From an uncultured bacterium (GTDB lineage: Bacteria; Zixibacteria; MSB-5A5; GN15; FEB-12), in the NCBI GenBank assembly GCA_965372795.1, contig CBDVDR010000001.1:283800-347799 (forward strand): 64,000 bases of DNA, in the 5' to 3' direction. Shown here piece after piece: positions 43,037-63,201 of the stretch. The translations under genes were made by a program, and so were the position numbers. The notes under the pieces are model-generated. The model was not told the origin of the DNA. It was given only the letters and a program-made list of their open reading frames with translations, and did no database searches. Numbering within the stretch: position 1 is the stretch's first letter; every line of letters starts with the position of its first letter.

Positions 43037-43041
43037 TAAGA

Positions 43042-45455: not shown

Positions 45456-47573
45456 TTATTGCACTGACAAATTCAACGGTGTTTCAGTAACCTGCCATTG
45501 ACCTTTACCAACATTTTTGGGTCCTTTGAAAACCAGATAAGAATATTTTCCATAATGGGGTACCAGTTGACCGATTCGCGGCAGAGATTCATAGTCATCA
45601 GTGAGAATAATCATAAGTTTTCCTGAACCTACATTGCTTTTTCCAGTTAGAACAAAAGTATGCCCTTCACGAGGGAATTCAACTTCATTGATAGTGATTG
45701 TCGTTTGATTTGCAGATATATTTTTAAATATATAAGGAGGTATCATAGATGGATTAAGAAGCAGAGGTACAAATTCACCTTTTGAATTTGGTGAAGATAA
45801 TATTTGCGACATCAAGCTGTCATCGGTAATGTTAAATGCAAATTCTGAAAATTTACTTTTAGCTTCTTCGTTTGGCTGAGTAAATATAAAATTCTTTTCT
45901 TCAACCCCGAGGATGGCTGAAACTATCGGCTCAACCTCGTCGGGATACAACTGTCTAAAGATATGATAATCGGGATCAATTTGAATTTGGTCAACATCAA
46001 TTGACAGATTCATTTCAAATTGTTTTTCAGCTGAATCGAGCAATAAAGTTGTATCAAGAATTGTTTTTTCACCGGCTAAAAACCTAACCGGAATTTCAAG
46101 GCGGTAGTTCTGTTCACTTTTGTCAGCGAGAGTAAATTTGATTGATTTGGTATCACCTGAAATTTTTGATTCAAGATTATTGACCTCAAGCATTGGCGCT
46201 CCGGCACGATCAATCCATTCAGGAATAATATATGAAAGATCCTCGCCACTTTCTTTTTCAAAGAAACTAATCCAATCCTCCCATGAAACTCTTACACCGA
46301 TATTTTGAGCAAACATATTTTTCCATGCTTTAAAAAACGGTTCTTCCCCTATCGCTTCTTCAATCATGTGAAAAACCATCATCGCTTTATTATATCCGAT
46401 TGTCCGGGTGTTCGGTGATGTTCTTGATTTAAACTCACGAATGGGGAAATCATTTGATTCGTTGACATAGCTGTTATACTGTTTGAGAATATTTTTTCGG
46501 TAATCCATCGCATCTGATTTTGATTTTTTTAATTTGTATCTGTAATCAGCACCATAAACAGTAATTGATTCGCACCAGTTACCTTTTTCGTAATCAACAT
46601 AAAGAGAATTTCCAAACCAGTTGTGAAGGACCTCATGCCCCAACGATGTTGTTATAATAAATGGCAGTCTCAGTACCTGCTGTCCCAACAAAGTCCAACC
46701 CGGCATCCCATAACCGGTAGGGAAGAAATTTTCTGCGACGGTAAATCTTTTAAAAGGATATGGTCCGATCAAATCAGAGTAGGTTTTGATATAATCTGCT
46801 GTTGCAGTTAGGTATCTATCTATCAAGGAACTGTCCTCAACAAAGAAATAACAGGCCACCTCAACTGAATCAACAAAAGTGGATTTTGTCAAATATGGAG
46901 CCGCCATAAACATTAACCCGTCAGACTTAAACGGGTTTTCCCATACCTGTATTTTCTTATCTCCCTCAGTCGTACTTGAAATTCTGTTTCCATCACTGAT
47001 AGATTCCCAGTCCGATGGAATCGTTACTGTCAGTTTAAAGTTAAGGATATCCTCACCCCCCATAGGGTAGAAAAAGGATGATGGGCTTAAATAGGCACCT
47101 CGTTTAAGAAAGGTTCCGTTTACTTCGCTGCCAACTCTTTCATTAGAGAATCTAATATTTTCGACTTCTTCATAAAAAGTGGCTGTATATTTAATTTCAA
47201 AATTACTTTCAGAACTTTCTTTTGTTTCAAAATACACATAAAGAGCATCACTGGGTTCTTCGATAGTTTTTGAAACTTCTGCTGCTGAACCTATAAGTGT
47301 CGACGTGTCCGATGGGATAAAAGTATAGTATTCTATTTCTTCACCATTAATTCTTATTTCTGAAATGTATGCCGTTTTATTCAAGATAAAATAATGCATT
47401 CCGGTATTATAAGAAAAAATACCTTTATCTATAAAAGTACCGGTATGATTTTCGATGTCGACCTTCATTTCAATTGAGTGATTGATAAAGTTTACCGAAT
47501 TGATTGCATTTGTTGAAGTTGCCAGAAGAATGACAAACATAATAATTTTAATGACTTGTTTGATTGGCAGCAT
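45456..47573 (-). CDS. Exported M1-family zinc aminopeptidase
   Basis: Signal peptide, TGYGMP, HEVLHNWFG-(x)-E and YNKA motifs. Confidence 0.85.
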   Translation of the reverse strand: MLPIKQVIKIIMFVILLATSTNAINSVNFINHSIEMKVDIENHTGTFIDKGIFSYNTGMHYFILNKTAYISEIRINGEEIEYYTFIPSDTSTLIGSAAEVSKTIEEPSDALYVYFETKESSESNFEIKYTATFYEEVENIRFSNERVGSEVNGTFLKRGAYLSPSSFFYPMGGEDILNFKLTVTIPSDWESISDGNRISSTTEGDKKIQVWENPFKSDGLMFMAAPYLTKSTFVDSVEVACYFFVEDSSLIDRYLTATADYIKTYSDLIGPYPFKRFTVAENFFPTGYGMPGWTLLGQQVLRLPFIITTSLGHEVLHNWFGNSLYVDYEKGNWCESITVYGADYRYKLKKSKSDAMDYRKNILKQYNSYVNESNDFPIREFKSRTSPNTRTIGYNKAMMVFHMIEEAIGEEPFFKAWKNMFAQNIGVRVSWEDWISFFEKESGEDLSYIIPEWIDRAGAPMLEVNNLESKISGDTKSIKFTLADKSEQNYRLEIPVRFLAGEKTILDTTLLLDSAEKQFEMNLSIDVDQIQIDPDYHIFRQLYPDEVEPIVSAILGVEEKNFIFTQPNEEAKSKFSEFAFNITDDSLMSQILSSPNSKGEFVPLLLNPSMIPPYIFKNISANQTTITINEVEFPREGHTFVLTGKSNVGSGKLMIILTDDYESLPRIGQLVPHYGKYSYLVFKGPKNVGKGQWQVTETPLNLSVQ

Positions 47574-47674: not shown

Positions 47675-48160
47675 TTAATTAAGATCCTTTCTCATTGAAT
47701 AGCCGAATTCTTCTGGAGTACGACCTTCACCTTCTTTAAATATCTTATAATCACGATTTTTATACATTTTAATAGCTCTATGGTTATCTCCATCGACACC
47801 CAATGTGATAACTTTTTTCCCAAGTTGTTTTGCTTGTTCTTCAATAAAATCCATCATCTTCCAGCCAATGCCCTGTTTTTGATGATCGCTTCTGACTTGT
47901 AAATTATGAACATGGCAGATATTTTTACCATCAGCCAATTCCGGATCATTGTCAGCTTTATTTAGTATTAATTGAATCATCGCTACGACTTTATCTTCCT
48001 CATAAGCGATAGAGATTATACGGTTATCACCGGCTTCACTAAGATCATGCTTAAGTTCTTTAATTATAGCTTTCAATTCATCATCTGTTTTTTTATATGT
48101 TTCAGCAATTGCAACCAATAGATCTAAATCACTGTTATTGTTTAACTCTACAATTTTCAT
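47675..48160 (-). CDS. GNAT family N-acetyltransferase (alternative start 48193)
   Basis: V..DHQKQGIG motif A and N.RAI.MY motif B. Confidence 0.85.
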   Translation of the reverse strand: MKIVELNNNSDLDLLVAIAETYKKTDDELKAIIKELKHDLSEAGDNRIISIAYEEDKVVAMIQLILNKADNDPELADGKNICHVHNLQVRSDHQKQGIGWKMMDFIEEQAKQLGKKVITLGVDGDNHRAIKMYKNRDYKIFKEGEGRTPEEFGYSMRKDLN

Positions 48161-48199
48161 TTTATCCCCAATTAATAAATTCAACTTATTCATTTATAT

Positions 48200-48229
48200 A
48201 CAGGCGAAAGAGAATACAAAACGTTTGCA
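48200..48229 (-). promoter_or_regulatory. Putative ECF promoter, copy 1 (GNAT)
   Basis: TGCAAACG-N15-CGCCTGT. Confidence 0.75.
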
Positions 48230-48236
48230 GAAATTT

Positions 48237-48270
48237 AAAAAAAGCCGTTTAGATTACTCCAAACGGCTTT
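48237..48270 (-). terminator. Intrinsic terminator (duplicated at 51904-51937)
   Basis: AAAGCCGTTT/AAACGGCTTT stem with a T tract on the minus strand. Confidence 0.75.
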
Positions 48271-48288
48271 GTAGTTATTGAGCAGGGA

Positions 48289-51200
48289 TTACTTCAACAG
48301 TAACATCTTCTTGCTATGGCTGTAATCACCAGCTTGTATCTTGTAGAAATAAACTCCGCTGGAAACTTGCTTACCATTGGAATTAACACCATCCCATTCG
48401 ATAGAATGATAACCGGCTTGCATCGAACCATCAATAAGCGTGGTTACTTTTTGTCCGATGACATTATAAACCGCAAGCTTCACCTCGCCCGGATTCGGCA
48501 AGGCAAACTCGATCTGTGTCACCGGGTTAAACGGGTTTGGATAGTTCTGGTTAAGGGAGTAAACATCCGGTAATGTTGGCTGTTTCATTGCTTCACCAAT
48601 TGATGGAATAACACTAATGTGGTTCATATCTGCAACAACTGCTGAAATTATTTCATACTCACCATTTAGTTGTACCAGATTAGTTGAACCGGCTTTGATA
48701 GTTTCTGAACCTTGAAGGTCAAGCAGACCGATCTGTGTTTGACCATCCTGTTCATGATAAAACATTTCGATATTTTTATCTGCAAGTTTTACCGGAGCTT
48801 CAGTTGATGAACCGATTAGTTCAATCTGGATTCCTTTCAAATCAAAATCAGAATCAATCGAAAGGGTTGTCATATTATTACCATAATAACTGTTGATTGA
48901 AACATCACCAGATTGTTTGTAAGCTTTAGGAATGCAAAGATCAGAACAATATGGAAGTGAGGGACCATCTCTAAACATGAAATCAATAAGGAAAGTTAAA
49001 TCAGAGATATCAAGGATACAATCCAAATTGAGATCAGCTTCTTCAAAGCATACCGGTTCCGGACCTGCTCTAAACATCCAATCAATGAAATAAGTCAGAT
49101 CAGAAATATCTGGCAGAAGTGGGTTGTCATTATCTCCATTGACATCTCCTCTTGGACCAACACAACAGCTACCATCTCCGATTATAATACTACCTGGGTT
49201 AAATTCTGGTATTACTACGCTATCAGGATAAACAAACTGATAACTATAATCAACCGCGTTATAGTTTACAGTAACTGTATCAATTACAACAAGCTCATCA
49301 TAAGCTTCTGGAGCGATGGTGAAGTACATTTTTGCTGTTGTAGTACTACAAGGGATTATTGGTTCTTCGGTAGACCTTTCACAAAAATATGGGAAAGCAT
49401 CATCTACCTTGCGAATAATTACTGTCGAATCATCAACATTTATAATTTCCAATCCACTAATTCCGGAATTTGCAATTACTGAATCAAGGATAACATTTTC
49501 ATATTGAGATGTATAATATCTTAATGGAATTGTAAACTCTTTAAGAGAATCATTAGTTGAGATTACAACTGGAATTACAACTTTCTGATCTGGTCTGGTA
49601 TATTCATCACCTACATCAACACCAGCCTCCACAAAAAACGATACATAAATATATTTTGATTCACTTATTCCATCAAAATCATATATTTCAATAACTCCTG
49701 AGTAAATCCCAGCAGTATAATTTGAATCTACAATTGAAATTACCAGAGTATCAGGATTTGATCCTGTTAGTTTATCTACTTGTATCCAATCAAAGCCGGA
49801 TTTTATTTTGGATCGCCAATTAAGAATTCCATCTTCACACGAACTATTGATATATACAACTTGAGAATCAATTGGATAGATAGAATTCTCTGTTGTATTA
49901 AATAACAGATATTTGTCACTTAACTCCACAGGTCTTTCTTGGGTGATATTGATAGTATAATCACTTGTATCAGAACCATTCAAGTTCTCCGCAATTATAT
50001 TAAAAACATACTCTCCTTCTTTAATATAATTAAAACAAAGAGAATCATTAGCCCAGGAATAATTGATTGGATCAATTAAAATACCATCAATAGTTAGAGA
50101 AATATTAACAGTTTCTTGATTGATTATCTGTAATTCAATACAAGTGTCATTACTTACTTCAAAACCACATGTTGCAAAATAATATTCTTTTTCTTGACGA
50201 TACACATACGGTTTTGAAAGGCAGAATTTGCATTGTAAACTCATCCAAAAGGTACTAGTTGGTGCACCATCTCCCTCTCTTATAAATATTGTATAATCTC
50301 CTGACTCAGGTAGCACATAATCTATGAAGTTTACCTGACGACCACCATAATCTCCCCAAACATCAGTGTAATCATCATAATCATATATAAACAATGTATC
50401 TGAGGGACCATACAACTCAAGCATACAACGAAATTTTGTATTTGTTCCCGCTGGTTCTACTCGTAATGTAATAATATCACTTGAATCACCATAAAAAGTA
50501 TATCCATCAATCGCTCCAAAAGGTGTTATAGCATCTTCATAATAAAAATCATATACAACCTCCATCGCATTATTTATAATATGCTCACGACACTGTAAAC
50601 TCATCCAATAAGCACTAGTCGGAGTACCGTCACCTTCTCTTATAAATATTGTATAATCTCCTGTCTCAGGTAACACATAATCAATGAAGTTCACCTGACG
50701 CCCTCCGTAATTTCCCCATACATCGGTGTAATCATCATAATCATATATCAAATATGTATTTGAGGGACCATACAACTCAAGCATACAACGAAATTTTGTA
50801 TTTGTCCCTGCTGGCTCTACTTGAAGAATAATTCTTTCACCTGCTACTCCACTAAAAGTGTAAGCATCTATTTCACCTGATATTGCTACAGTATCATTCA
50901 CCAAGGTATCATAAGATATCGGTAATGCATTATCCATCAAATGCTCACGACATTGTAAACTCAACCAGTAAGCACTAGTCGGAGTACCATCACCTTCTCT
51001 TATAAATATTGTATAAGTTCCTGTCTCAGGCAGCTCATAGTCTATGAAGTTCACTTGACGACCTCCATAACTTCCCCAAACATCAGTGTAATTATCATAA
51101 TCAGAAATAAATAATGTATCTGTTGGTCCATACAACTCAAGCAAACAACGAAATGTTGTATTTGTTCCTGCTGGCTCAACACGGAGAAGAATTCTTTCAC

Positions 51201-51822
51201 CTGCAACTCCACTAAAGGTGTAAGCATCTATTTCATCATATAAAGCTACAGTATCATTCACCAATGTATCATAAGATATGGGTATTGCATTATCGATCAA
51301 ATGTTCACGACACTGCAAGCTTAACAAGTAAGTAAATATTTCATTCGCCTGAGTTTCAGAAATAAATAAATTATATGTTCCTGTCATTTCTAATTCTAAA
51401 TCAACAAATCTTACCTGCCCACCATTGCTTGCCGTAGCCGTTACAAAAAGAGAATAATCTGGATTATAAAGTTCTAGTGTTACTTCAGCAGAGCCACTTG
51501 GATCAACACGAAGTATGATCCTATCACCTGCTGTACCACTAAATGTAATTCTGTCAATATCACCAAAATTATCAATAGAATCCGTTATTAGAGTATCATA
51601 AGCTATTGTAATTGTTTGTGCGTTTCCTGACATTGGGATAGCCAGAACAGCGATTAAAACAAGCATAAATGCACCTGTCTTAATCCTAAATTGATCAAAT
51701 GTTTGCATAACTTCTCCCCTGGTTATATTATTTTTTGATTTGTGTGCTCTGGTATTAAGCCTAAATAATGGCATAAAAGACCTAACAGTCAAGCTATTAA
51801 AGGTTTTTTTGAACATAAACAT
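48289..51822 (-). CDS. Secreted multidomain protein: PPC-like repeats, BACON-like, cohesin-like, dockerin, FlgD/T9SS-type CTD (second start at 51708)
   Basis: Signal peptide after M39; ~121-aa repeats; CCVGPRGDVN...DISDLTY dockerin; NQNYPNPFNP...KKMLLLK. Confidence 0.82.
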   Translation of the reverse strand: MFMFKKTFNSLTVRSFMPLFRLNTRAHKSKNNITRGEVMQTFDQFRIKTGAFMLVLIAVLAIPMSGNAQTITIAYDTLITDSIDNFGDIDRITFSGTAGDRIILRVDPSGSAEVTLELYNPDYSLFVTATASNGGQVRFVDLELEMTGTYNLFISETQANEIFTYLLSLQCREHLIDNAIPISYDTLVNDTVALYDEIDAYTFSGVAGERILLRVEPAGTNTTFRCLLELYGPTDTLFISDYDNYTDVWGSYGGRQVNFIDYELPETGTYTIFIREGDGTPTSAYWLSLQCREHLMDNALPISYDTLVNDTVAISGEIDAYTFSGVAGERIILQVEPAGTNTKFRCMLELYGPSNTYLIYDYDDYTDVWGNYGGRQVNFIDYVLPETGDYTIFIREGDGTPTSAYWMSLQCREHIINNAMEVVYDFYYEDAITPFGAIDGYTFYGDSSDIITLRVEPAGTNTKFRCMLELYGPSDTLFIYDYDDYTDVWGDYGGRQVNFIDYVLPESGDYTIFIREGDGAPTSTFWMSLQCKFCLSKPYVYRQEKEYYFATCGFEVSNDTCIELQIINQETVNISLTIDGILIDPINYSWANDSLCFNYIKEGEYVFNIIAENLNGSDTSDYTINITQERPVELSDKYLLFNTTENSIYPIDSQVVYINSSCEDGILNWRSKIKSGFDWIQVDKLTGSNPDTLVISIVDSNYTAGIYSGVIEIYDFDGISESKYIYVSFFVEAGVDVGDEYTRPDQKVVIPVVISTNDSLKEFTIPLRYYTSQYENVILDSVIANSGISGLEIINVDDSTVIIRKVDDAFPYFCERSTEEPIIPCSTTTAKMYFTIAPEAYDELVVIDTVTVNYNAVDYSYQFVYPDSVVIPEFNPGSIIIGDGSCCVGPRGDVNGDNDNPLLPDISDLTYFIDWMFRAGPEPVCFEEADLNLDCILDISDLTFLIDFMFRDGPSLPYCSDLCIPKAYKQSGDVSINSYYGNNMTTLSIDSDFDLKGIQIELIGSSTEAPVKLADKNIEMFYHEQDGQTQIGLLDLQGSETIKAGSTNLVQLNGEYEIISAVVADMNHISVIPSIGEAMKQPTLPDVYSLNQNYPNPFNPVTQIEFALPNPGEVKLAVYNVIGQKVTTLIDGSMQAGYHSIEWDGVNSNGKQVSSGVYFYKIQAGDYSHSKKMLLLK
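50230..51320 (-). repeat. Three near-identical 363-bp intragenic repeats
   Basis: LQCREH/LQCK anchors recur at a 363-bp period with high nucleotide similarity. Confidence 0.85.
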
Positions 51823-51857
51823 TTTTTACACTCCTAGTTTTCTTTCATCTTTAAAAG

Positions 51858-51887
51858 ACTGGCGAAGGAGTACCCAAAACGTTTGTC
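51858..51887 (-). promoter_or_regulatory. Putative ECF promoter, copy 2
   Basis: GACAAACG-N15-CGCCAGT. Confidence 0.75.
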
Positions 51888-51955
51888 AGAAAATAGTAAT
51901 TATAAAAAAAGCCGTTTAGATTTCTCCAAACGGCTTTGTAGTTATTGAGCAGGCA

Positions 51956-54900
51956 TTACTTCAACAGCAACATCTTCTTGCTATGGCTGTAATCACCGGC
52001 ATGAATCTTATAGAAATAAACTCCGCTGGAAACTTGATTACCATTGGAATTAACACCATCCCATTCGATAGAATGATAACCGGCTTGCATCGAACCATCA
52101 ATAAGCGTGGTTACTTTTTGTCCGATGACATTATAAACCACAAGTTTCACCTCGCCCGGATTCGGCAAGGCAAACTCTATCTGTGTAACAGGATTAAACG
52201 GGTTCGGATAATTCTGGTTGAGCGAATATACATCCGGTAATGTTGGTTGTTTTAAGGCTTCACCAATTGATGGAATAACCGACTGATGATTTATGTCTGC
52301 AACAACTGCCGAGATAATTTCATACTCACCATTAAGTTGTACCAGATTGGTTGAACCGGCTTTGATAGTTTCTGATCCTTGAAGGTCAAGCAGACCGATC
52401 CGGGTTTGACCATCCTGTTCATGATAAAACATTTCGATATTTTTATCTGCAAGTTTTACCGGAGCTTCAGTTGATGAACCGATTAGTTCAATCTGGATTC
52501 CTTTCAAATCAAAATCAGAATCAATCGAAAGGGTTGTCATATTATTACCATAATAACTGTTGATTGTAACATCACCCGACTGCTTGTATGCTTTAAGCAC
52601 ACATTGCTCTATGCATGCCGGAGGAGGAGGACCCGCTCTAAACATGTAATCAATTATATAAGTTAAGTCGGAAATATCAATCACACAATCCAAAGTAAGG
52701 TCTGCTTCTTCAATACAGACAATTTCGGGACCTTGTTTGAACATATAATCTACAAGATAGGTTAAGTCTAATATGTTAATAATATCTTCAGAATCATTAT
52801 CAATATTTCCCCTCATCCCAACACAACATGCTTCACTTTCAATATAAATTCGTCCCAAATCAAAGGCTGGAACAACAGTTGTATAAATATCATTATTGCG
52901 ATAAGTGAATTGATAGCTGTAATCAGCTTTGAAACTTAAAGTCGTTGTATCAATTATGATAACTTCAGACACAGCATCCGGTGCAAATGTAAAGTACGCC
53001 GTTGCAACCTGATATGAATTTGAATCAGGAAGGATCGGTTCTTCGGTATCGCGATAGCAGATGAACGAAGTATCATCAATTATAATAATCGTACCTCCGA
53101 TATCCTGCATTGCTATAACAGAATCGAGGCTGACTTTATCAGGTTGGAAAGTGCTATACACTAATGGAATCGTAAATCTTGCCAGCGAGTCAATTGGGAC
53201 AATAACAATTGGAACTTCAATAGATGCCCCCGGCTTGGTGTATTGATCAACAATATCGGTACCATCGTTGATGAAGAAAGAAACTTGAACATAGGTCTGT
53301 GAGTTATCACCGGAAAGGTCATCAAAAACCAGAACTGCTGTATAAACACCCGGATTCAATATCCCCCGATCAACTGAAACCGTGATGTTATCAGGGGTAG
53401 TTCCTGAAATTTTATCAATGCTTAGCCAGGTTGAATTGTTGTTGTTGGAATAAAAAATATCGGTTAATTCCCAATCCAGTTCTGCTGCACTGCTTGTGAT
53501 TTGAATCTGTTGTGAAACGGGAGGGATAATCGCATCATCGGTTGTGGTGAATGTTAAGTAATCGGTATCAAAGTTCAGTTTTGGAACAATGTTACATCCA
53601 ACCCCCAGAGCACCTATCAAAACTCCACAACTATTATTAGCTTGTGCACAAATAGAAGAACCTTCAATATGAAAGTCACCTAAAGCAGTATCACAAAAAA
53701 GAGGGTCAAGAGAAAAGTTTCCATTCAGATTTTCAAAACCAGCGATACAATCAACCCAATCACCATTGGTGTTACCAAATATATCCGTACAATCAATTGT
53801 GATTGTTGAATTTTCATCTCCACAATTGATTGAACCATTGTCATTATCAGAACTAGTGTTAAAAGCAAGGATTGAATTGCTTATCTGTACTGTAGAATTT
53901 GTAAATACAGTAATAGCACCTCCATATGGAGCATCATTATTCACAATTGTACAGTTTAATAAAGACAGGTTAGATGTAACAGCAGTTATTGCACCCCCAT
54001 TATTTGCTGATATATTATTTTTAAAATAACATGAATTTAGCAAGGAAGATGCATTATTATCGAGAAGGCCTCCGCCACTGCTAATTGAAGCTTCATTTGA
54101 ATCAAAAGTACAATTTAATATCTGTGGAGAACTATTATTCCAACTAAATATTCCTCCACCTGCACCGGCGACATTACTGAAAAAATTGCAATTATCAATT
54201 ACAGGATTCGATAATGTTCGTATCGCAATACCACCTCCACGACCATTTATTAGGGTTGAATTAAAACTAAAATAACAATCGTAAATATAAGGTGAGGAGT
54301 TATCACAAAAGATTCCACCTCCATCAGTGCTACCACTTTTACAGTTAGTAATAGAAATGTTTCTAATCATAGGTGAAGAATTATTAGTACAAGATACTCC
54401 ACCTCCAGATTGTGAATATCCATTCACTATGTTTAAACCTATAAGCTGAGAAGTAGAATCTTCTCCATTTGAAAATATAAATCCTCGATGCATATCAAGC
54501 GAATCTGCCTGGCAGTCAATGTCTACTATTATTCCATCTACAGCTTTTACGACAATCGCTTTCCCAAGAAAATCTATATCACGATTACCATCGCCAGTAT
54601 ATGTACCTTCATGCACTAACACCGTATCACTAGCTGTAGCCATATCAATACCATGCTGGATAGTTGCGAACGGAGCAGCTTCGCTGCCGTCACCGCTTAT
54701 ATCATTACCGATTGTTGAGACATGGTATGTTGATCTATCTATAGCCCCGCATCCGACATCATAGGCACCTATCAGTGTATCACCATTTGCAGCCGGCGCA
54801 CAAGGAGAGTTGGCATCAAGTGAATAATTATCTATGGAAGTATCACAAAATAATGGTTTTGCTGTAAAGTTTCCACTGGTAAACTCTAAATCTGCAATAC

Positions 54901-57805
54901 AGCCAACCCAATTACCACCTGAATTACCATACACATCATTCTGGTAAAGATATGGGTTACTTGGAGGATCAGTTACCAAATCAGGAGCGATTATATAACA
55001 TTCAACTGATTTACCAAAATTATAGGCAATGATACAATCATACAAAGTAGGACTTGAACTTGAGCAAAACAGACCAGCGCCATCAACTCGTGCCCTATTT
55101 TTGACAATAGTACATCTTGATAAAGTTGGTTCTGCACCTGTGTTTAAGCCAATTCCACCACCATAGTAATCAGAATAGTTTTCTGTAATAAGACAATTTC
55201 TTAAACTGGCTCCGGAAGTGCCATGACTAAAAAAGATTGCTCCTCCACTCCAGTTCGCATCATTGTCTTTAAAAATACAATTAGAAATCCATGGTGAACC
55301 ATTTGAAATCAAAATTGCTCCACCTATGTTTGCATAGTTTTGTGAAAACCAGCAGTTAATTATTCTTGGGCTGGAATTTTCAATCCAAATACCACCACCA
55401 AAAGGATTCCCTCCTGGAGTATAACCACCAACAATATTAAAGCCGATTATCTTAGTTGATGAAGTTTCATTTGTATGAATATAAAATCCCCGGTGTGGAT
55501 TCGAGGCAGATCCTTCAATCTTTATCATGGTATTTTCTGGACCGTTTTCTGACATGACGATAAGTCTCTTGCCCAATAAATCTATATCACGATTGCCATC
55601 ACCGATATAAATTCCATCATGTACTAAAACCGTATCACCATCCGATGCTAAATCAATAGCATGTTGAATAGTTTCAAGCGGATCAGCTTCACTGCCGTCA
55701 CCGGTTTCTAAGCCATAGATTGACACATGCCAAACAGGACCTTCATAAATAGAAAAGTCTGTTTTGAGAACCATTAAAGAAGAACCATCAGCCAAATAAA
55801 CCAAGCTGTCTGATACGAAAACTCTACGTGCATGACCCGGAGTATCATAACTACCAACTAATTCAGGATTGGTCGGATCAGAAATACTAACAATTTGAAG
55901 ACCTTTATCTCCATTAGTTAAATATGCATGATCATTTGATATAAAAAAATGGGTTGTAAAACCCCCTGATGTATAATAACTACCAACATATGTAGGATTT
56001 ACAGGATCTGATACATTGATTATTCGAAGTCCACTATAACCATCAGCCACGTACAATAAAGTATCTAATACTACAATATCGAATGCATTATTCGGAGTAT
56101 CATAATTGCTAACAAATATAGGATTGGTCGGTTCAGAGACATTAATAATTTGAACTCCATTTGTTCCATCAGCTACATATGCTAAAGTATCAACTACAAA
56201 TACATTATATGCATATTTTATAATATCAGAACTACCTACATATACTGGTGTAGTAGGATCGGAAACATTTAGAATTACAAGACCATTCAACCCTGAGCCT
56301 ACATAAGCAAGTGTATCTGAAACAAAAACACCCATTGCATCACCTGAGTACTCTCCAACAAATTCTGGGTTGGTAGGATCAGATACATTAATTATCTTAA
56401 GTCCCCCTGATCCATCTGCAATATAAGCGAGACTATCTGATAAAAATACAACCTGTGCATAACGAGTATCATAATTGCCAACCATATAAGGACTGTTAAT
56501 ATCTGATATATTTACAATACTAAGTCCATTATTCCAATTGGCTACATAAGCTAAAGTATCTGAAACATAAATGCCAAGTGCCAGACTTGGAGTATCATAA
56601 TTGCCAATATAATCAGGGTTGACTGGTTCTGACACATTGAATAATTGAAAACCACCTGTACCAGCTACATAAACCAGTGTATCTGACACAAAAACATCAA
56701 GAGTTGCTCCCGGTGCATATAAACTGCTCACAAATTCAGGATTGGTGGGTTCAGATACATTGATTATTTTAACACCACTACTTCCATATGCAACATACGC
56801 CAATGTATCTGATACAAATACATCATAAGACCTACCTGTTGTATTATAACTACCAACAAATTCAGGATTGATAGGGTCTGAAACATTGATTATTTGAAGA
56901 CCACTATCGTAAGCTGCCACATAAGCTAATGTATCTGAAACAAAAACACTTCTTGCTGAACCAGGAATATCATAACTTCCAAGTAGGTATGGATTGATTG
57001 GGTCTGAAACGTTGATTATTTGAAGATCGCCACTATGACTATTTGCAAAATACACTAGTGTATCTAAGACAAAAACACTAAAAACTCTTTCAGCATAATT
57101 GCCAACAAATTCAGGATTGAAAGGATCTGAGATATCAATAATTTGAAGACCACCATAATCATCAGCGATAAACGCCAATGAATCTATTACAAAAACACTA
57201 TATGCCCAATCTGGAGTATTATAACTGCCTATAGTAATAGGATTAACAGGATCTAGAACATCAATGATTATAAGCCCTTCACTTCCATCCGCTAAATATA
57301 CAAAATCTCCTGATTTATCAATTCCCTCTCCAGTACCCTGTAAATACATATAACTTACACTGTCTGGATTTGTAGGATCTGAGACATCAAGGATCACTAA
57401 CCCATTAACATAAGCACAATAGGCATAATCGCCATCCACAACAACATCTTTAACATCAGACCACAAGCAACTGCTGACATATTCAACATTGAAGTCACTC
57501 TCGGCAAAGACATCTTTGGTAAAGTCGTATTTACTAAATGAGTCATCTCTTAATAGAAAATCCCGGGGGTCTTCCCCCATCATTGGAAATCTTTCCTGCG
57601 CCGGGCAGAAAGTGTTCAGCACTAAGATTAACATTATTGCTAAAACTGAAATAGACAGGGCTTTGCCTATTAAGGTTCTGTGGAATACCATGTTCCCTCC
57701 AAATAAAGTTAATAATTTTGTATGGTGTGCTCTAATCGTCCGTATCCAATATAGCATTTTTGACCTATATGTCAAGAATCCTGATTGTTTATCACATTTC
57801 ATCAT
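51956..57805 (-). CDS. Giant secreted protein: LVIVD-repeat propellers, two parallel beta-helix domains, BACON-like, cohesin-like, dockerin, FlgD/T9SS-type CTD (second start at 57691)
   Basis: About 13-14 V.V.DTLAYVA...GL.IINVSDP.NP repeats; two GDGSE..P..TIQH.ID domains with GGAI repeats; CCVGMRGNID dockerin; CTD. Confidence 0.85.
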   Translation of the reverse strand: MMKCDKQSGFLTYRSKMLYWIRTIRAHHTKLLTLFGGNMVFHRTLIGKALSISVLAIMLILVLNTFCPAQERFPMMGEDPRDFLLRDDSFSKYDFTKDVFAESDFNVEYVSSCLWSDVKDVVVDGDYAYCAYVNGLVILDVSDPTNPDSVSYMYLQGTGEGIDKSGDFVYLADGSEGLIIIDVLDPVNPITIGSYNTPDWAYSVFVIDSLAFIADDYGGLQIIDISDPFNPEFVGNYAERVFSVFVLDTLVYFANSHSGDLQIINVSDPINPYLLGSYDIPGSARSVFVSDTLAYVAAYDSGLQIINVSDPINPEFVGSYNTTGRSYDVFVSDTLAYVAYGSSGVKIINVSEPTNPEFVSSLYAPGATLDVFVSDTLVYVAGTGGFQLFNVSEPVNPDYIGNYDTPSLALGIYVSDTLAYVANWNNGLSIVNISDINSPYMVGNYDTRYAQVVFLSDSLAYIADGSGGLKIINVSDPTNPEFVGEYSGDAMGVFVSDTLAYVGSGLNGLVILNVSDPTTPVYVGSSDIIKYAYNVFVVDTLAYVADGTNGVQIINVSEPTNPIFVSNYDTPNNAFDIVVLDTLLYVADGYSGLRIINVSDPVNPTYVGSYYTSGGFTTHFFISNDHAYLTNGDKGLQIVSISDPTNPELVGSYDTPGHARRVFVSDSLVYLADGSSLMVLKTDFSIYEGPVWHVSIYGLETGDGSEADPLETIQHAIDLASDGDTVLVHDGIYIGDGNRDIDLLGKRLIVMSENGPENTMIKIEGSASNPHRGFYIHTNETSSTKIIGFNIVGGYTPGGNPFGGGIWIENSSPRIINCWFSQNYANIGGAILISNGSPWISNCIFKDNDANWSGGAIFFSHGTSGASLRNCLITENYSDYYGGGIGLNTGAEPTLSRCTIVKNRARVDGAGLFCSSSSPTLYDCIIAYNFGKSVECYIIAPDLVTDPPSNPYLYQNDVYGNSGGNWVGCIADLEFTSGNFTAKPLFCDTSIDNYSLDANSPCAPAANGDTLIGAYDVGCGAIDRSTYHVSTIGNDISGDGSEAAPFATIQHGIDMATASDTVLVHEGTYTGDGNRDIDFLGKAIVVKAVDGIIVDIDCQADSLDMHRGFIFSNGEDSTSQLIGLNIVNGYSQSGGGVSCTNNSSPMIRNISITNCKSGSTDGGGIFCDNSSPYIYDCYFSFNSTLINGRGGGIAIRTLSNPVIDNCNFFSNVAGAGGGIFSWNNSSPQILNCTFDSNEASISSGGGLLDNNASSLLNSCYFKNNISANNGGAITAVTSNLSLLNCTIVNNDAPYGGAITVFTNSTVQISNSILAFNTSSDNDNGSINCGDENSTITIDCTDIFGNTNGDWVDCIAGFENLNGNFSLDPLFCDTALGDFHIEGSSICAQANNSCGVLIGALGVGCNIVPKLNFDTDYLTFTTTDDAIIPPVSQQIQITSSAAELDWELTDIFYSNNNNSTWLSIDKISGTTPDNITVSVDRGILNPGVYTAVLVFDDLSGDNSQTYVQVSFFINDGTDIVDQYTKPGASIEVPIVIVPIDSLARFTIPLVYSTFQPDKVSLDSVIAMQDIGGTIIIIDDTSFICYRDTEEPILPDSNSYQVATAYFTFAPDAVSEVIIIDTTTLSFKADYSYQFTYRNNDIYTTVVPAFDLGRIYIESEACCVGMRGNIDNDSEDIINILDLTYLVDYMFKQGPEIVCIEEADLTLDCVIDISDLTYIIDYMFRAGPPPPACIEQCVLKAYKQSGDVTINSYYGNNMTTLSIDSDFDLKGIQIELIGSSTEAPVKLADKNIEMFYHEQDGQTRIGLLDLQGSETIKAGSTNLVQLNGEYEIISAVVADINHQSVIPSIGEALKQPTLPDVYSLNQNYPNPFNPVTQIEFALPNPGEVKLVVYNVIGQKVTTLIDGSMQAGYHSIEWDGVNSNGNQVSSGVYFYKIHAGDYSHSKKMLLLK

Positions 57806-57839
57806 AAATGCTCCTTAGTTTTGTTTACTTCTTTAAACT

Positions 57840-57869
57840 ACTGGCGAATGAGTACCCAAAACGTTTGCA
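57840..57869 (-). promoter_or_regulatory. Putative ECF promoter, copy 3
   Basis: TGCAAACG-N15-CGCCAGT. Confidence 0.75.
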
Positions 57870-57926
57870 AAAAAAAAGACGACAACCACTTTTGGTCATC
57901 GCCTTTGAGCACATCCCCCCCTCGTC

Positions 57927-58400
57927 TCAAAATCCGATTGTTATACCGGCTTTTATATTGATGCACTCCAGTAGATCAACATTTTTCTGTCTATTCAGCT
58001 TATTTGTAAAATCAGGAGCAATATCAAAATACAGACCCAAAGAAGGTGTTTCTTCCTTTTTTGTTAAAACAAAATCCGTCATAGTCGTTTCGGTTGATTC
58101 TTTTGAAAGTTCATCCCAAGACTCATCAGATTTTTCTTTATTTGAAGCATCTTCAACCTGTAACTCTTCCCCCTTGTCATCATCCCCTGCCAATTTTATA
58201 AAACCTATAATTATCCCTACACCAACCAAACCTATAGTGGTGTATAACATGAAGTCGGTCGCTTTATTTAATTTATTATCATAGTCAACATATTTATCGA
58301 TATCAGCAGCAAAGACAGATGATCCGGGAAGGATCACCTGTATTGCTAATGCTATAACGACGATTAAGGCAGTTGTTATATTTCTTGGTAACTTAAACAT
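57927..58400 (-). CDS. Small exported protein with an internal hydrophobic helix and a C-terminal beta-signal
   Basis: Signal peptide, KYVD, hydrophobic segment, acidic linker; ends IKAGITIGF. Confidence 0.7.
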   Translation of the reverse strand: MFKLPRNITTALIVVIALAIQVILPGSSVFAADIDKYVDYDNKLNKATDFMLYTTIGLVGVGIIIGFIKLAGDDDKGEELQVEDASNKEKSDESWDELSKESTETTMTDFVLTKKEETPSLGLYFDIAPDFTNKLNRQKNVDLLECINIKAGITIGF

Positions 58401-58412
58401 CGTTATATCCCC

Positions 58413-58892
58413 CTAAAATCCGAAAGTTACGCCGGCTTTTACGGTTAGATCCGAAAAGTCCAGAGTGTTGCTTTTAATTTGTGAAGATTCGCTCTGATCA
58501 ACATTCAGGAATAATGTCAAGCTTGGTTTGGAACCTTTGTCAAAAATTCCATCAGCAATAAATTTTGCTCCACTGCGACCTTCATCGTAACCCAAAAACT
58601 CATCATCTTCCTCAGCTTCTGTATCTTTGCCTGTTTCCTTTTGAGGGGTGACTTTGATCTGATCATCATCTTTTTTTGATTTCTGCATAAGTTTAAGTGT
58701 AACAGCACCAACCAATAGTGCTCCTACTGCAATCACGAGTCCGCTCGAAAATGGTGACGAATTCATTCCCGGAAGTTCACCTGAACGATCTACATATTTT
58801 GCCTGTGATGATGCCGGAACAAAAAACAGCTGAAATGCAAATACTAAGATCGCAATAGCTGTAACGGTTGATTTTGTTTTTTCTGTTTTCAT
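58413..58892 (-). CDS. Paralog of 57927-58400 (true start probably 58892)
   Basis: AAGGAG SD, signal peptide, KYVD, hydrophobic segment; ends VKAGVTFGF. Confidence 0.7.
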   Translation of the reverse strand: MKTEKTKSTVTAIAILVFAFQLFFVPASSQAKYVDRSGELPGMNSSPFSSGLVIAVGALLVGAVTLKLMQKSKKDDDQIKVTPQKETGKDTEAEEDDEFLGYDEGRSGAKFIADGIFDKGSKPSLTLFLNVDQSESSQIKSNTLDFSDLTVKAGVTFGF

Positions 58893-58942
58893 GACTTTCT
58901 CCTTCATGTTTGTGAAATTGTCTTTTTTGTTGTTCATGACTG

Positions 58943-58972
58943 ACAGGCGGAGCAAATCAAAAAACGTTTGCA
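58943..58972 (-). promoter_or_regulatory. Putative ECF promoter, copy 4
   Basis: TGCAAACG-N15-CGCCTGT. Confidence 0.75.
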
Positions 58973-58996
58973 AAAAAATTACCAAAAGACTATACT
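58968..58996 (+). promoter_or_regulatory. Sigma70 promoter giving a probable leaderless ECF mRNA
   Basis: TTGCAA-N17-TATACT, then 6 nt, then ATG at 59003; no SD. Confidence 0.6.
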
Positions 58997-59002
58997 TTCT
59001 TC

Positions 59003-59563
59003 ATGCTTCAGCAATTCAATGAATTTCAAACTGTTAGCGATTATTTATCGGGCAACAGGCAGGCTAATCAATTAATTGAAAAATATATTCAATCCGCTTT
59101 TAACAGCTGGAAAAGGAAATTTGGATTTGAGACCGATGATATTTTATCAGATATCAGGTATAAAATATTTCTCTCATTAAAAGAGAATAAATTCAGTTAT
59201 CAGTCAAAGCTCGAAACCTACATTAATAGGATAGTTAATCATACCTGTATCGATTATGTACGATTTAATAAGCGATTCACAGCTACAGAATTTGAAGAGC
59301 TCAATTTGACTTCAAAAGAGTTAAATCCGGAAGAACAGCTTGAAAAACGCCAATACGCAAAATTAGCTTTCCGTGTCCTGCGGCAACTCCCTAAAGAGTG
59401 TATCATGCTATGGCGTATGCACTTAAAAAAAGAGCTGAACTGCCGTGAAATTGGCGACATTTTAGGCAAAAAAGAAGGTAATATCAGACGTAGATTATGG
59501 GCTTGCCGGCAAGCCGCTAAAGAGATCAGAGAAAAATTATTAAAAAAGGACAAACTATTTTAA
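59003..59563 (+). CDS. ECF-family RNA polymerase sigma factor
   Basis: 186 aa; region 2 (DDIL...LETYINRIVNHTCIDYVR) and region 4 HTH (LP...REIGDILG....NIRRRL). Confidence 0.92.
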   Translation: MLQQFNEFQTVSDYLSGNRQANQLIEKYIQSAFNSWKRKFGFETDDILSDIRYKIFLSLKENKFSYQSKLETYINRIVNHTCIDYVRFNKRFTATEFEELNLTSKELNPEEQLEKRQYAKLAFRVLRQLPKECIMLWRMHLKKELNCREIGDILGKKEGNIRRRLWACRQAAKEIREKLLKKDKLF

Positions 59564-59578
59564 TGTTAGATCGCCAAT
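59549..59578 (+). promoter_or_regulatory. Putative ECF promoter, copy 5 (overlaps the sigma stop codon; faces anti-sigma and CHAT)
   Basis: GACAAACT-N15-CGCCAAT, same spacing as the other four copies. Confidence 0.6.
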
Positions 59579-59610: not shown

Positions 59611-60429
59611 TTGATGAATATGAACGATTTAATACCAAAATATCTGAATGGGCGAATGTCCGAAGAAGAAAAGCTTCAATTTGAAAAAGAAGTAGAAGCT
59701 AATTCCGAACTAAAAAGAGAACTTGCCGAATTAAGCCGATTATTTTTGGGAATCGAAATTACTGAAAAACTTGAACAAAACCATGTCGACTCTATGCAGC
59801 TTGTAATTTATGCAGAAAATCCTGGTGAACTGGATGATACAACGCAATTAGAAATATCAGACCATTTAAAAGAATGTCAGGATTGCACCGAAGAGTATAA
59901 AATCTGTTTGGAGGTTACTCAAAACAGCATCGTTAAAAATAAAGTGAGAAAAATATCTGAGAAAAATATAATTCAAAAAATTATCGGTTTCTTGCTCCCT
60001 CCGCAAATGCATCTTCGCCCTGCTGTTGCCTATTTTGCTTTAATCCTGCTCTCTGTGACCTCATATTATTCTTATGAAAGATTCACAATTCCCACTCCGA
60101 CAGTAGATGTTTATACTTTGTCGACAACCACTTTACGCGGCGAGACAAATAAAAATATAATTGAAATCACTATTGATGAAAAATATATCAATCTCGAATT
60201 TTCCATGCCTATTGTGAATAACCAAATGTACGATTTAACAATTTCAGATAATTTAAGTAGTCCCATTTTAACATTTCATAATCAAATTTATAATAATCAA
60301 TTCAAGATATTAGTATCAACTGACCAAATTAGTGAGGGTGATTATAAGATCTCAGTAAAAGATTCCAAGGCTGATTCAGCTAATGATGAAATATTAGAAG
60401 TATCATTTACAATAAAAATTATTGATTAA
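59611..60429 (+). CDS. Membrane anti-sigma factor with zinc-finger (ZAS, HxxxCxxC) domain
   Basis: YL.G.MS.EE...FE anti-sigma-like N-terminus, HLKECQDC, one TM helix, extracytoplasmic TLRG plus beta-rich domain. Confidence 0.8.
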   Translation: MMNMNDLIPKYLNGRMSEEEKLQFEKEVEANSELKRELAELSRLFLGIEITEKLEQNHVDSMQLVIYAENPGELDDTTQLEISDHLKECQDCTEEYKICLEVTQNSIVKNKVRKISEKNIIQKIIGFLLPPQMHLRPAVAYFALILLSVTSYYSYERFTIPTPTVDVYTLSTTTLRGETNKNIIEITIDEKYINLEFSMPIVNNQMYDLTISDNLSSPILTFHNQIYNNQFKILVSTDQISEGDYKISVKDSKADSANDEILEVSFTIKIID

Positions 60430-60456: not shown

Positions 60457-63201
60457 ATGCGTTATCGCTTCCATTTATTATTTATATTAGCAGCACTTAT
60501 TATTTGTTGTTCAAAAAATGAAGACAAATTCGCTGAATTTTCATCATTGTATATTAAGCATCAGGATTCATTATTAACAGCCAAAATCAATACTGCCCCT
60601 GATAAAGTCCGCCGGTATATTATTCATTTACTCAAAGAATATCCTTCAAACAAATACAATCAATCACCTAATTATTCTAAAATTGAATACGAAATAGCTT
60701 GGTTTATAGACAAGTATATAAAACAGACCAATCTGGATGAACTACAAAAGAGGTTTGATCTATACAAAAATTGGAGTCGAAAAGAATTATCAAATAAAAT
60801 ATCGCTTGATTCAACTTTTAGTCACTTGAATAACAACGCCAATACTAAATCTTTTCCAATCAGTTTGAAAAAACTTTTACCTGAGTATGAGAATTTAAAC
60901 GACTCTTTTAAAATTGCTTCTATTTTCTATCAAATTGGAGATTTTTATTTTAATAAGAAAATAAATGATTCAGCAATTACTTATTTTGATAAATCAGTTG
61001 AAGTTGCAAAACATTTTGATAATTTAAATATGATAGGAGATGCCTGGTTTAAAAAATCTATAATCTATCATTACAGATTAGAAAACCGCATTCAAGCTGA
61101 TATTCACTTATACAAATCTGAAGATATATTCAATAAACTAAACCAACGAGATCGTCTGATTTATATCTGGAACATTCAAGGTCATTCTCTTTATAAACAG
61201 TCATTTTTTGATAAGTCTTCTGCAAAGCATAAAATGGTTGCCGATACAGCAAAAATGAAAAACATAAAGAACCTTGAAGCTCAAGCATATAACTATATAG
61301 CGGAAGCATATATTGATTTAGAAAATTTTGATAGTGCTCTAATTTATTGCGAATACTCTATAAAAATTAGAGAAACCATCAACAGCAGTAACAAATCTAA
61401 AAATTCAAATATTGATCTGGCAAATTCTTTTTGTACAAAGGCTCTTATTAAGCAACGACAAAAATCATTCAAGCATGCTAAAGAACTTCTTGATGAAGCA
61501 TTTGAGATTTTCATTAGTTATAAAAACAGCGATGGCATACGATTATGTAATGAACGAAAAGCATGGCTTGACGTTGACATGGGTAATTTTATAGATGCTG
61601 AACAGAAATTCATGAAAAATCTTAGCCTGGGAACTAAGAATGAAACCATCCTGCAGGCTCTTTACGGTTTAGGTGTATGTTATTACAGATTAAATGATAA
61701 CTCAAAAGCATTAGAGTACTTATTGACTTTCGATCAAGTAATAGATGGCATACTTAATCAAATTGATTTTAAGGAATTTAAAAAAGGTATGATTGGTGAC
61801 AAGTCAGACGCTTATGAGTTGATTTCAATACTATATAAAGAAAAATTCGAAACCGACGGCCAAATTTCAAATTTGGATTCTGCATTAAAATATATAGAAA
61901 AAAACAAAGCTCGATCTCTTTTTGAAATGATGGATGTTAAAATTGAAACTACTCCTGAAATTGATTCCCTTGTTTTATTAAAATCAAAATTACTCGTCAA
62001 TCTGCTTAATCCGGAAATTGATCAATCATTTGTCAAAGACTCAATCAATACTATCCGGAGTTCATTATTATTATTGCAATTAAATAATCAAAACAAAATT
62101 AAAAATATCAACGTCACCAAACACAATGATAATATCCGTGATATTGTTACCAATCAAATGCTAAAAGATGATGAGATGATTATCGAATATGTTTTATCAC
62201 CATATGGTTCTTTCATGTTCTTCATTACTAATAATTTGTTTACATATTCTCCTATTACTCTGCCTTTTGATTCAATAAAAGCTTTAACAACACAATACTA
62301 CGATTTGATCTCATCGCCAGAGTCTAAAATTTCAAATAATTTCACGGAACTGGGGAAAACATTATATGACATTTTTATTCCCCACCAGATAATCGAAAAG
62401 GAAAATATCAAGCATCTCATTATAATTCCAACAGATTTATTATACTCACTACCGGTAGAAACATTTATAAACCAATACAATCAATTCCTTATTGAAAATA
62501 ACAGAATTTCCTATGCAAATTCGATACATATATTGGAATCAGCAAATAAAAGAAAATATGCATCGATGACAAAAAAACAAATTGTAAGTTTTGGTGATCC
62601 AATCATTTCAAATGGACTGTCATTTGAACCAATTCCATATACAGCGAAAGAAATAAAATCTATAAATTCAAAATTTAAATCTGCCCAATCAGACATTTTC
62701 TTAAGCAGTGAAGCTACTGAATCTGCATTCAAATCTTATTCGTTTGAAAATGTTCAATATCTTCATATTGCTTCTCACGGATATTGCAATTTTTCAGATC
62801 CGGATCAATCAGGTATTTTATTTTCTCCTTCAACTGAAAATGCGCCGAGCGATATGCTTCATATTGATGAATTCAGAAATCTAAAGATACCAGTGAAACT
62901 TACTTTCTTATCTGCCTGCCAAACCGGCACAGGGAAAGTCCTTCCAGGTGAAGGCGTGATGGGATTGGCTAATCCTTTTATTTTAGCCGGAAGTAAATCG
63001 GTTATTGTAACCCTATGGAAAATAGATGATCGGGCATCATCGAAAATGGTCCCAATGTTTTATGATTATTTACTAAAAGGTTTGCCTATCTCAGAAGCTC
63101 TTTCGTCTGCAAAGAATAAAATGATAAACTCTGATATATCTCTGTATAAACATCCCTTTTATTGGGCTCCATTTATTTATATCGGTTCAAATGACATTTA
63201 A
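60457..63201 (+). CDS. TPR-CHAT (caspase HetF-associated) protease, probable lipoprotein
   Basis: Short signal with Cys (LIICCSK), TPR-like helices, E..KARSL, LIIIP, LHIASHG (His), FLSACQTG (Cys), LWKIDD and HPFYWAPF. Confidence 0.92.
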   Translation: MRYRFHLLFILAALIICCSKNEDKFAEFSSLYIKHQDSLLTAKINTAPDKVRRYIIHLLKEYPSNKYNQSPNYSKIEYEIAWFIDKYIKQTNLDELQKRFDLYKNWSRKELSNKISLDSTFSHLNNNANTKSFPISLKKLLPEYENLNDSFKIASIFYQIGDFYFNKKINDSAITYFDKSVEVAKHFDNLNMIGDAWFKKSIIYHYRLENRIQADIHLYKSEDIFNKLNQRDRLIYIWNIQGHSLYKQSFFDKSSAKHKMVADTAKMKNIKNLEAQAYNYIAEAYIDLENFDSALIYCEYSIKIRETINSSNKSKNSNIDLANSFCTKALIKQRQKSFKHAKELLDEAFEIFISYKNSDGIRLCNERKAWLDVDMGNFIDAEQKFMKNLSLGTKNETILQALYGLGVCYYRLNDNSKALEYLLTFDQVIDGILNQIDFKEFKKGMIGDKSDAYELISILYKEKFETDGQISNLDSALKYIEKNKARSLFEMMDVKIETTPEIDSLVLLKSKLLVNLLNPEIDQSFVKDSINTIRSSLLLLQLNNQNKIKNINVTKHNDNIRDIVTNQMLKDDEMIIEYVLSPYGSFMFFITNNLFTYSPITLPFDSIKALTTQYYDLISSPESKISNNFTELGKTLYDIFIPHQIIEKENIKHLIIIPTDLLYSLPVETFINQYNQFLIENNRISYANSIHILESANKRKYASMTKKQIVSFGDPIISNGLSFEPIPYTAKEIKSINSKFKSAQSDIFLSSEATESAFKSYSFENVQYLHIASHGYCNFSDPDQSGILFSPSTENAPSDMLHIDEFRNLKIPVKLTFLSACQTGTGKVLPGEGVMGLANPFILAGSKSVIVTLWKIDDRASSKMVPMFYDYLLKGLPISEALSSAKNKMINSDISLYKHPFYWAPFIYIGSNDI

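Follow-up and report, generated by a model that had tools for sequence, protein, structure and literature searches.

A probable local ECF sigma factor promoter motif and its proposed protease-linked circuit in a Zixibacteria genome

Which regulator reads a bipartite DNA motif that occurs five times around a small sigma factor gene? The question is raised by a stretch of 64,000 nucleotides (nt) from an uncultured bacterium of the Zixibacteria (GenBank assembly GCA_965372795.1, contig CBDVDR010000001.1, positions 283,800 to 347,799 of the forward strand); this whole stretch is referred to as the window, and its coordinates are used unless another locus is named. The nearest named relative of the locus is a Zixibacteriota assembly. 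The original prediction was that the motif is the promoter of the adjacent extracytoplasmic function (ECF) sigma factor and that it defines a local regulon of about 15 kb. The first claim is very likely correct, being supported by a motif that tracks the sigma group, by its conserved placement and by its ranking with a weight matrix. The second was borne out in that the regulon is local by the matrix, but one of its presumed members (GNAT) was probably carried along as a by-product, and the gene of the sigma factor itself lies outside it. The module in question is a Zixibacteria ECF sigma factor with a predicted zinc-finger membrane anti-sigma and a separate TPR-CHAT protein that is predicted to be exported.

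A pattern search of the window returned all five copies at the positions and on the strands originally given, and the 15-nt spacer noted between longer boxes is the same thing as the core CAAAC-N16-CGCC used here. On the minus strand, ECF-type promoter sites are located at 48203-48227 (5' of a GNAT acetyltransferase gene), 51861-51885 (upstream of the gene for a 1177-aa secreted protein), 57843-57867 (upstream of the gene for a 1949-aa secreted protein) and 58946-58970 (serving a pair of small paralogs and divergent from the sigma gene). The plus-strand site (59551-59575) serves the anti-sigma and TPR-CHAT genes, and its -35 box lies inside the last sigma codons (D-K-L). As claimed, every one of the five aims into a gene, with the 59551 site aiming into the anti-sigma and CHAT genes and not into the sigma gene. 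The core has six matches in the window versus 0.18 expected, a number reached in none of 100 shuffles, and spacers of 12 to 20 nt other than 16 gave zero or one match each. The sixth match (40240-40264) is antisense within an open reading frame (ORF) and outside the 30 best matrix hits; it was rejected as chance. As is typical of ECF promoters, the sites lie upstream of target genes and combine a -35 AAC and a -10 CG that are separated by a constant distance of about 16 nt. The spacers had been described as mostly divergent, which needs correction: the -35 box is directly followed by a T-tract, with T in 50 and 55 of the 58 other-genome sites at two of its positions, and the spacers at 57843 and 51861 differ in 1 of 16 bases. 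A T-tract proximal to the -35 box is a known trait of some ECF promoters (PMC5758882).

A scan of the whole genome and of homologous loci had been suggested as a check, and it gave a divided answer. Across the 3.35 Mb of the source genome the bare core is at background level (29 matches at N16 versus 11-40 at other spacers). When a matrix was built from the 58 other-genome sites, after seven doubtful rows had been dropped from the site list, the five sites of the window ranked 1 to 5 genome-wide (31.9-23.5 bits), a result in which the core is inherited from the window motif and only the flanks and the spacer are independent; the sites are also kept in related loci. No clear matrix site was found in the genome beyond the locus, the next hit (21.4 bits) having a different -10 box. 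Judged by the matrix, the regulon is local.

To which regulator the motif belongs can be seen from the comparison of loci. Searching the 285 genomes of the phylum with a profile of 20 sigmas gave 59 places, spread over 49 genomes. Compared were 40 of the 58 places outside the source genome together with four metagenome loci; the 18 omitted places all scored at most 146 bits. Locus L054 was left out as a copy of L053 (the two, G010:C14 and C11, are cassette copies with identical proteins in one assembly, a recent duplication or an assembly artefact), and L035 stops within the sigma gene. In the sigma tree, 18 rows form group II (support 99/95); the remainder is called group I, and its deep branches do not resolve. 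At the 3' end of the sigma gene, [CT][AC]AAC-N16-[CT]GCC was found in 23 of 24 group-I and 0 of 18 group-II loci, and GA[AT]C-N16-NGAC (the GAAC-N16-NGAC type) in 17 of 18 group-II and 0 of 24 group-I loci; with spacers of 13-15 and 17-19 nt neither pattern matched there at all. The strict C[AC]AAC-N16-CGCC stands at the anti-sigma promoter of 20 of the 24 group-I loci. Over whole loci, the strict motif at N16 was counted 61 times in group I versus 3-11 at other spacers, and 13 times in group II versus 1-20. Five genomes contain both groups, and in four of them each motif is found at its own locus.

These results bear on the alternative that the motif is read by another ECF sigma factor or by a DNA-binding regulator encoded elsewhere. 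The source genome does contain 21 matches to the sigma-70/ECF families above the cut-off, but such a regulator is highly improbable because the motif switches with the local sigma group between loci within single genomes. In addition, an extended pattern, itself derived from these same loci, occurs in 10 of the 13 family genomes that have a group-I sigma versus 11 of the 95 that have none (reversed control: 15 of 108), and the motif is not palindromic and is not a direct repeat. None of the 30 best matrix hits falls in the two other sigma-CHAT cassettes of the source genome. Three points count against assigning the motif to the local sigma factor: the relaxed patterns behind the counts of 23 and 17 were written after inspection of the same loci, the loci are kin and not independent trials, so that all these counts overstate significance, and in the fifth genome with both groups (L057) the group-I anti-sigma site is absent, with the divergent site present.

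Within the sigmas, a Trp or Tyr at the position aligned with Ser172 of RpoE goes with a CCAAC anti-sigma promoter (7 of 9 such group-I sigmas versus 0 of the 15 others), and the residue aligned to Ser172 is described as setting the -34 base (PMC7776599). The association may go back to one event; independent origins of Trp/Tyr were considered, and a single clade was not rejected (p-AU 0.149, approximately unbiased test). Arg at this position pairs with A in group I and with G in most of group II.

Could the five copies be leftovers of tandem duplication without a common function? Segments 48229-49046 and 51895-52713 match by 90% and segments 51831-51893 and 57811-57874 by 86%, so the five copies are, by these alignments, not independent, three of them sharing duplicated DNA. 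Moreover, the 59551 site overlaps conserved sigma codons. Against this stand the N16 matches in the group-I loci of other genomes, which lie before unrelated genes, and the CGCC half of the 59551-type site, which is mostly outside coding sequence and still conserved. As an explanation of all five sites, duplication is therefore extremely unlikely: it is refuted for the four sites that are conserved before non-homologous genes and holds for the GNAT site only. The latter site marks where an 820-nt duplicate ends, and among the other 44 loci, as far as they are listed, none was seen to carry a GNAT homolog; for these reasons it is probably a duplication by-product, and the GNAT acetyltransferase (47675-48193, minus strand) would be an accidental regulon member. 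An exported M1-family peptidase (45456-47573, minus strand) is encoded right after GNAT on the same strand, and read-through from 48203 into it is possible. Hairpins resembling intrinsic terminators are located directly before three of the five sites, all on the minus strand: at 57875-57906 right before the 57843 site, at 51908-51937 before the 51861 site and at 48241-48270 before the 48203 site, the last being a copy of the second.

The sigma gene itself apparently lies outside the regulon. The anti-sigma promoter overlaps the last sigma codons in both groups, and therefore the sigma gene is not under this promoter. No ECF site aimed into the sigma gene was found in the window, so the usual positive autoregulation, a common but non-defining trait of ECF sigmas, was not seen. 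Instead, a sigma-70-like promoter precedes the gene (58968-58996, plus strand; TTGCAA-17-TATACT), with 6 nt to the ATG (the whole layout spans 58968-59005), and the sigma mRNA is probably leaderless. The TTGC of its -35 box is the reverse complement of GCAA in the -35 box of the divergent ECF site at 58946. The same arrangement, TTG read from the complement of the divergent ECF -35 box and TAnnnT 16-18 nt further on, was found in 22 of 24 loci versus 3 of 43 control sites (L051 was out of reach in this comparison), and an in-frame ATG or GTG lies 4-8 nt past that -10 box in 20 of the 24. Two polymerases would be unable to occupy such opposed, overlapping promoters together. Because the two -35 boxes overlap, we propose with moderate confidence that the ECF polymerase represses the sigma gene.

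Further sigma-70-like promoters appear to be nested behind ECF sites. The best hit of the promoter scan (57748-57775, minus strand; TTGACA-16-TATATT) lies within an in-frame N-terminal extension of the 1949-aa gene, and a second one (51765-51792, minus strand; TTGACT-16-CATTAT) within that of the 1177-aa gene; the second ATGs of these genes led by a ribosome-binding site (RBS) are located at 57691 and 51708, respectively. Downstream of group-I sites other than anti-sigma promoters, TTGAC[AT]-16/18-nAnnnT was found in 13 of 47 cases, a count in which the two window cases share one duplication and the 47 sites include chance ones. An RBS-led start is present upstream in 12 of the 13, and 11 of these starts are in frame with the main gene, where they mostly put 38-48 extra residues ahead of the second RBS-led start. 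No such nested promoter was found at the 23 group-II sites. In the source genome, 42 tail-bearing proteins were found, and of the 26 with an RBS-led start only the 2 of the window show the nested layout. The extensions are read as read-through leaders across a basal promoter because they conserve little apart from what the DNA motifs impose and because the leaders of the large genes showed no conserved RNA structure (10 sequences, 0 pairs). A GAGCAC word 7-16 nt past the nested -10 box was also observed (window about 57725-57732 and 51744-51751, minus strand; likewise in L035, L042 and L044); promoter plus GAGCAC has five matches genome-wide and could be an operator.

What, then, would control the sigma factor? 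The ECF sigma (59003-59563, plus strand) has 186 aa, matches TIGR02937 with 55.4 bits (cut-off 42.9) and by profile aligns over its full length with E. coli RpoE (E 6e-9), in agreement with the layout of ECF sigmas, which have regions 2 and 4 only in about 190 aa. The anti-sigma (59611-60429, plus strand; 272 aa) matches zf-HC2 with 30.7 bits (cut-off 22.2). Its model (predicted local distance difference test, pLDDT, 89.7) shows two tandem helical units (window 59611-59920), the second with H58/H85/C89/C92, a membrane helix at about 137-159 and an outside beta-sandwich at 165-271. Zinc ligands are present only in the second unit in group I; many group-II proteins have them in both. The fold search returned only weak beta-sandwich matches. 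The Atlas neighbours of the anti-sigma come mostly from Acidobacteriota, which is a lead only.

The TPR-CHAT protein (60457-63201, plus strand; 914 aa; CHAT E 6e-63) has a lipoprotein-like signal, and from this N-terminal signal we infer its export. His774 and Cys821 are kept in all 33 CHAT proteins of at least 500 aa, and so is Asp858, which, by analogy with separase, may line an arginine pocket. The model (pLDDT 88) resembles Csx29, DdvA and separase in fold; by sequence, the CHAT protein matched no solved structure. A profile search with TPR-CHAT found TPR proteins, and the best natural matches of the TPR region are peptide-binding kinesin light chains. Wherever both are seen, anti-sigma and TPR-CHAT are two genes, with no dedicated search having been made for longer fused forms; in L043 the CHAT protein is in two pieces. 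The CHAT gene is adjacent in 19 of 24 group-I loci, three further loci end at a contig edge and two (L038 and L041) are without it.

A candidate cut site for the protease was found in the anti-sigma. Arg176 (codon 60136-60138, plus strand) is present in 41 of 42 anti-sigmas, with Lys in L052, and the flanking residues vary; the residue that follows is mostly small (Ser, Gly, Ala). Among 131 further homologs Arg is found in 114, and in 122 within two columns, versus a background of 6%, although these counts are partly circular since the search profile contained the Arg. In the model, Arg176 is placed about 17 residues from the membrane helix, in a loop that follows the first outside strand and is flanked by strands 165-170 and 183-187. 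By analogy with the PatU3 residue at which HetF cuts, it is a candidate for the position of cleavage. The CHAT protein of L052 (12181-15843), the sole locus with Lys, keeps the dyad and has no lipoprotein-type Cys. Complex prediction for TPR-CHAT with the anti-sigma gave 0.50 versus 0.01 for the best control, pointing weakly to an interaction; of 157 solved pairs 116 attain this mark, and of 215 mismatched pairs 2 do, but values of at most 0.60 account for only 18 of the 157 and for both mismatches. At least 96% of contacts are shared between runs, the partner has a pLDDT of 79, and likeness to the solved DdvA, or memory of it, may contribute.

These features allow us to propose a circuit. The sigma would be made from its leaderless sigma-70-type promoter, whose DNA is seen and whose activity is presumed, and would be held by the membrane anti-sigma via the zinc-binding domain, as suggested by the family. 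Upon an outside signal, the exported TPR-CHAT protease would cut the anti-sigma after Arg176, the outside domain would unfold or be lost, and RseP, which is encoded in the source genome, would cut within the membrane and set the sigma free; we lean towards this order of cuts, with moderate certainty. The free sigma would transcribe the genes for the two large secreted proteins and the small exported ones and raise the supply of anti-sigma and protease, and polymerase at the divergent ECF site would cover the -35 box of the sigma gene and make the response self-limiting. The large secreted genes would also keep a sigma-70-type promoter for basal expression. Taken as a whole, the promoter of the local sigma together with this protease-linked circuit is the best explanation and a reasonably probable one.

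In an appreciably less probable alternative, the promoters are as proposed but TPR-CHAT is not the release trigger: it would shield the anti-sigma, as RseB does in E. coli, or process secreted targets, and another protease would cut first. This agrees with the predicted co-transcription of CHAT and the anti-sigma from one ECF site in group I, and with an unlinked CHAT gene in 2 of 21 assessable group-I loci. The TPR-CHAT of DdvA is described as a steric block against RseP (PMC11506125). On the other side, the dyad is invariant, a single basic residue stands in the variable loop of all 42 anti-sigmas (41 Arg, 1 Lys) and a small residue mostly follows it, as at the HetF site. Several further points weaken the proposed circuit. 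An output or stabiliser role also fits, since the ECF promoter would drive the protease gene as well, and Arg176 could be a structural or binding residue. L038 and L041 have room for an adjacent CHAT gene and lack it, with a similar gene elsewhere in both genomes. The lipoprotein signal was judged by eye and with a loose pattern in 17 of 19 group-I proteins, and also in 7 of 13 of group II. For DdvA, CHAT cleavage is a proposal, and dyad mutants behaved like wild type at rest (PMC11506125).

With respect to known systems, the module resembles a split relative of DdvS/DdvA of Myxococcus xanthus that would work alike without being a member. Both have an ECF sigma, a zinc-binding single-pass anti-sigma and an outside TPR-CHAT with a His-Cys dyad, as well as a local regulon (four promoters with a 16-nt spacer for DdvS) and an RseP step (PMC6061681, PMC11506125). 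The anti-sigma profile hits the DdvA N-domain (E 0.0025), and the zinc-binding cytoplasmic domain with one membrane helix that characterises DdvA is found here as two tandem helical units. Compared with the DdvS/DdvA structures (PDB 8ROT, 8RW5, 8RLZ), the CHAT model has a TM-score of 0.49 against 8ROT, the highest among the matches listed. Membership is not assigned because the protease is separate and the motif, autoregulation and targets differ. In DdvA the TPR-CHAT is fused to the anti-sigma, whereas here it is a separate exported protein and the anti-sigma has its own beta-sandwich with the conserved Arg; in PMC11506125, fused forms are reported only from Myxococcota and one Comamonas. The DdvS motif is GTAA-n16-CGT instead of CAAAC-N16-CGCC, DdvS transcribes its own gene, which the sigma here apparently does not, and its targets are CBASS and CRISPR genes (PMC6061681), whereas here they are secreted proteins and no defence genes were seen in the window.

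Other systems share single elements. In Craspase (Csx29/Csx30/CASP-sigma), a separate TPR-CHAT protease cuts a sigma inhibitor and the promoters are local (PMC10028731), and Csx29 chains are the top fold matches of the CHAT model by E-value. That system is, however, cytoplasmic and triggered by RNA-bound Cas7-11, with no membrane anti-sigma described (PMC10028731), and it cuts after Met or Leu, separase cutting after Arg (PMC11506125). No Cas7-11 partner was found among the ORFs of 40000-64000, and the TPR-CHAT here has a signal peptide. HetF of Anabaena is a CHAT protease that cuts the inhibitor of a regulator after one Arg (R117|S118, PatU3/HetZ; PMC9457339); it is linked to the divisome, and the likeness of PatU3/HetZ to the proteins here is one of described function. 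In the case of HrpL of Pseudomonas syringae, the sigma gene's own promoter is likewise repressed by ECF polymerase that sits on a divergently oriented target promoter, but there the activator sites of a sigma-54 promoter are occluded (PMC5263251), whereas here the -35 boxes share base pairs and the sigma mRNA is predicted to be leaderless. ECF54 sigmas also have TPR-CHAT neighbours, and proteolytic control has been proposed for them (PMC7826278, PMC8999054); they are actinobacterial, without a described anti-sigma, and have a GTATCAG / CTCC motif (PMC7826278), traits in which the module here differs. Small regulons beside the sigma gene with AAC-N16-CG promoters and a T-tract are known, and about half of the ECFs are predicted to be local regulators (PMC7776599, PMC5758882). 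No paper on the split exported form or on Zixibacteria ECF regulons was found in a search that covered neither subscription journals nor bioRxiv supplements.

The purpose of the switch may be read from its predicted targets. Small exported protein A (58413-58892, minus strand; 159 aa from an RBS-led ATG) is an ORF with a signal peptide, after which follow the family motif W-x-D-x-S-D-E-L-P-G-M, a hydrophobic helix and a terminal Phe; protein B (57927-58400, minus strand) is a diverged paralog with 23% identity. The family was not found in Pfam, NCBIfam or the Atlas above 0.82, and six homologs were found among 8000 candidates scored. The 1949-aa secreted protein (51956-57805, minus strand) contains LVIVD repeats and a beta-helix and the 1177-aa one (48289-51822, minus strand) PPC-like repeats, both with a FlgD-like tail of the type IX secretion system (T9SS) type. 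The targets of related loci are exported as well, namely large tail-bearing proteins, small lipoproteins, a barrel-like protein and the protein A family (labels by eye, except Pfam hits). In L056 (1292-3403) and L065 (16448), five tandem small secreted units are each located behind their own GGAAC-N16-CGAC site, and several carry an N-A-R-S stretch like the Arg loop of the anti-sigma; they are possible decoy substrates or inhibitors.

Most likely, the module is an envelope-sensing switch that raises the production of surface and secreted proteins. Since the TPR region resembles peptide-binding kinesin light chains, protein A with its W-x-D-x-S-D-E-L-P-G-M N-terminus is a candidate ligand. It is tentatively possible that a previously undescribed class of trans-envelope signalling is represented, in which the first cut in the anti-sigma is made by a free exported Arg-specific caspase-like protease that is dedicated to this step and controlled by a peptide ligand (perhaps the Trp-acidic N-terminus of a small exported target), with feedback written in overlapping DNA: one -35 box shared by opposed promoters, a promoter in the last sigma codons and sigma-70 promoters within in-frame extensions. 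A rather unlikely purpose, compatible with the best explanation, would be an early-warning anti-phage switch like DdvS/DdvA with exported targets as surface shields or decoys. The closest characterised systems (DdvA, Csx29-Csx30) are defence-linked and the module is patchy in the phylum, but the targets are exported or envelope proteins, PADLOC, run on the window proteins only, matched 0 of 8 apart from one weak stretch, and only some DdvA-like pairs are located near defence genes (PMC11506125).

Similar cassettes were observed elsewhere. In the source genome, G000:C4:10058-14559 (plus strand) encodes a second sigma, zinc-finger membrane anti-sigma and exported TPR-CHAT, divergent from a tail-bearing secreted protein, and here, too, an Arg follows the membrane helix of the anti-sigma. 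A third sigma-CHAT cassette (G000:C1:56963-67526, minus strand) has no visible membrane helix or signal peptide and is followed by a 2210-aa secreted protein. L002 (407-5213) contains a similar CHAT end and then a subtilase-like secreted protein. Window positions 42236-45405 (plus strand) presumably encode a radical-SAM activase and glycyl-radical enzyme pair, assigned by eye from motifs.

A local ECF regulon with T-tract promoters is ordinary, and the value of this one lies in the protease step. A first cut of the anti-sigma by TPR-CHAT was proposed for DdvA and is described as untestable there without a signal (PMC11506125). With protease and substrate separate and conservation singling out one residue, the idea becomes testable with two proteins and two point mutants. 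The shared -35 box suggests an ECF sigma that represses its own gene, and methods that scan only upstream of the sigma gene on its own strand would miss such a promoter. The two promoter classes with their sigmas are matched and probably orthogonal switches, and they offer a first readable regulon for Zixibacteria cassettes of this kind.

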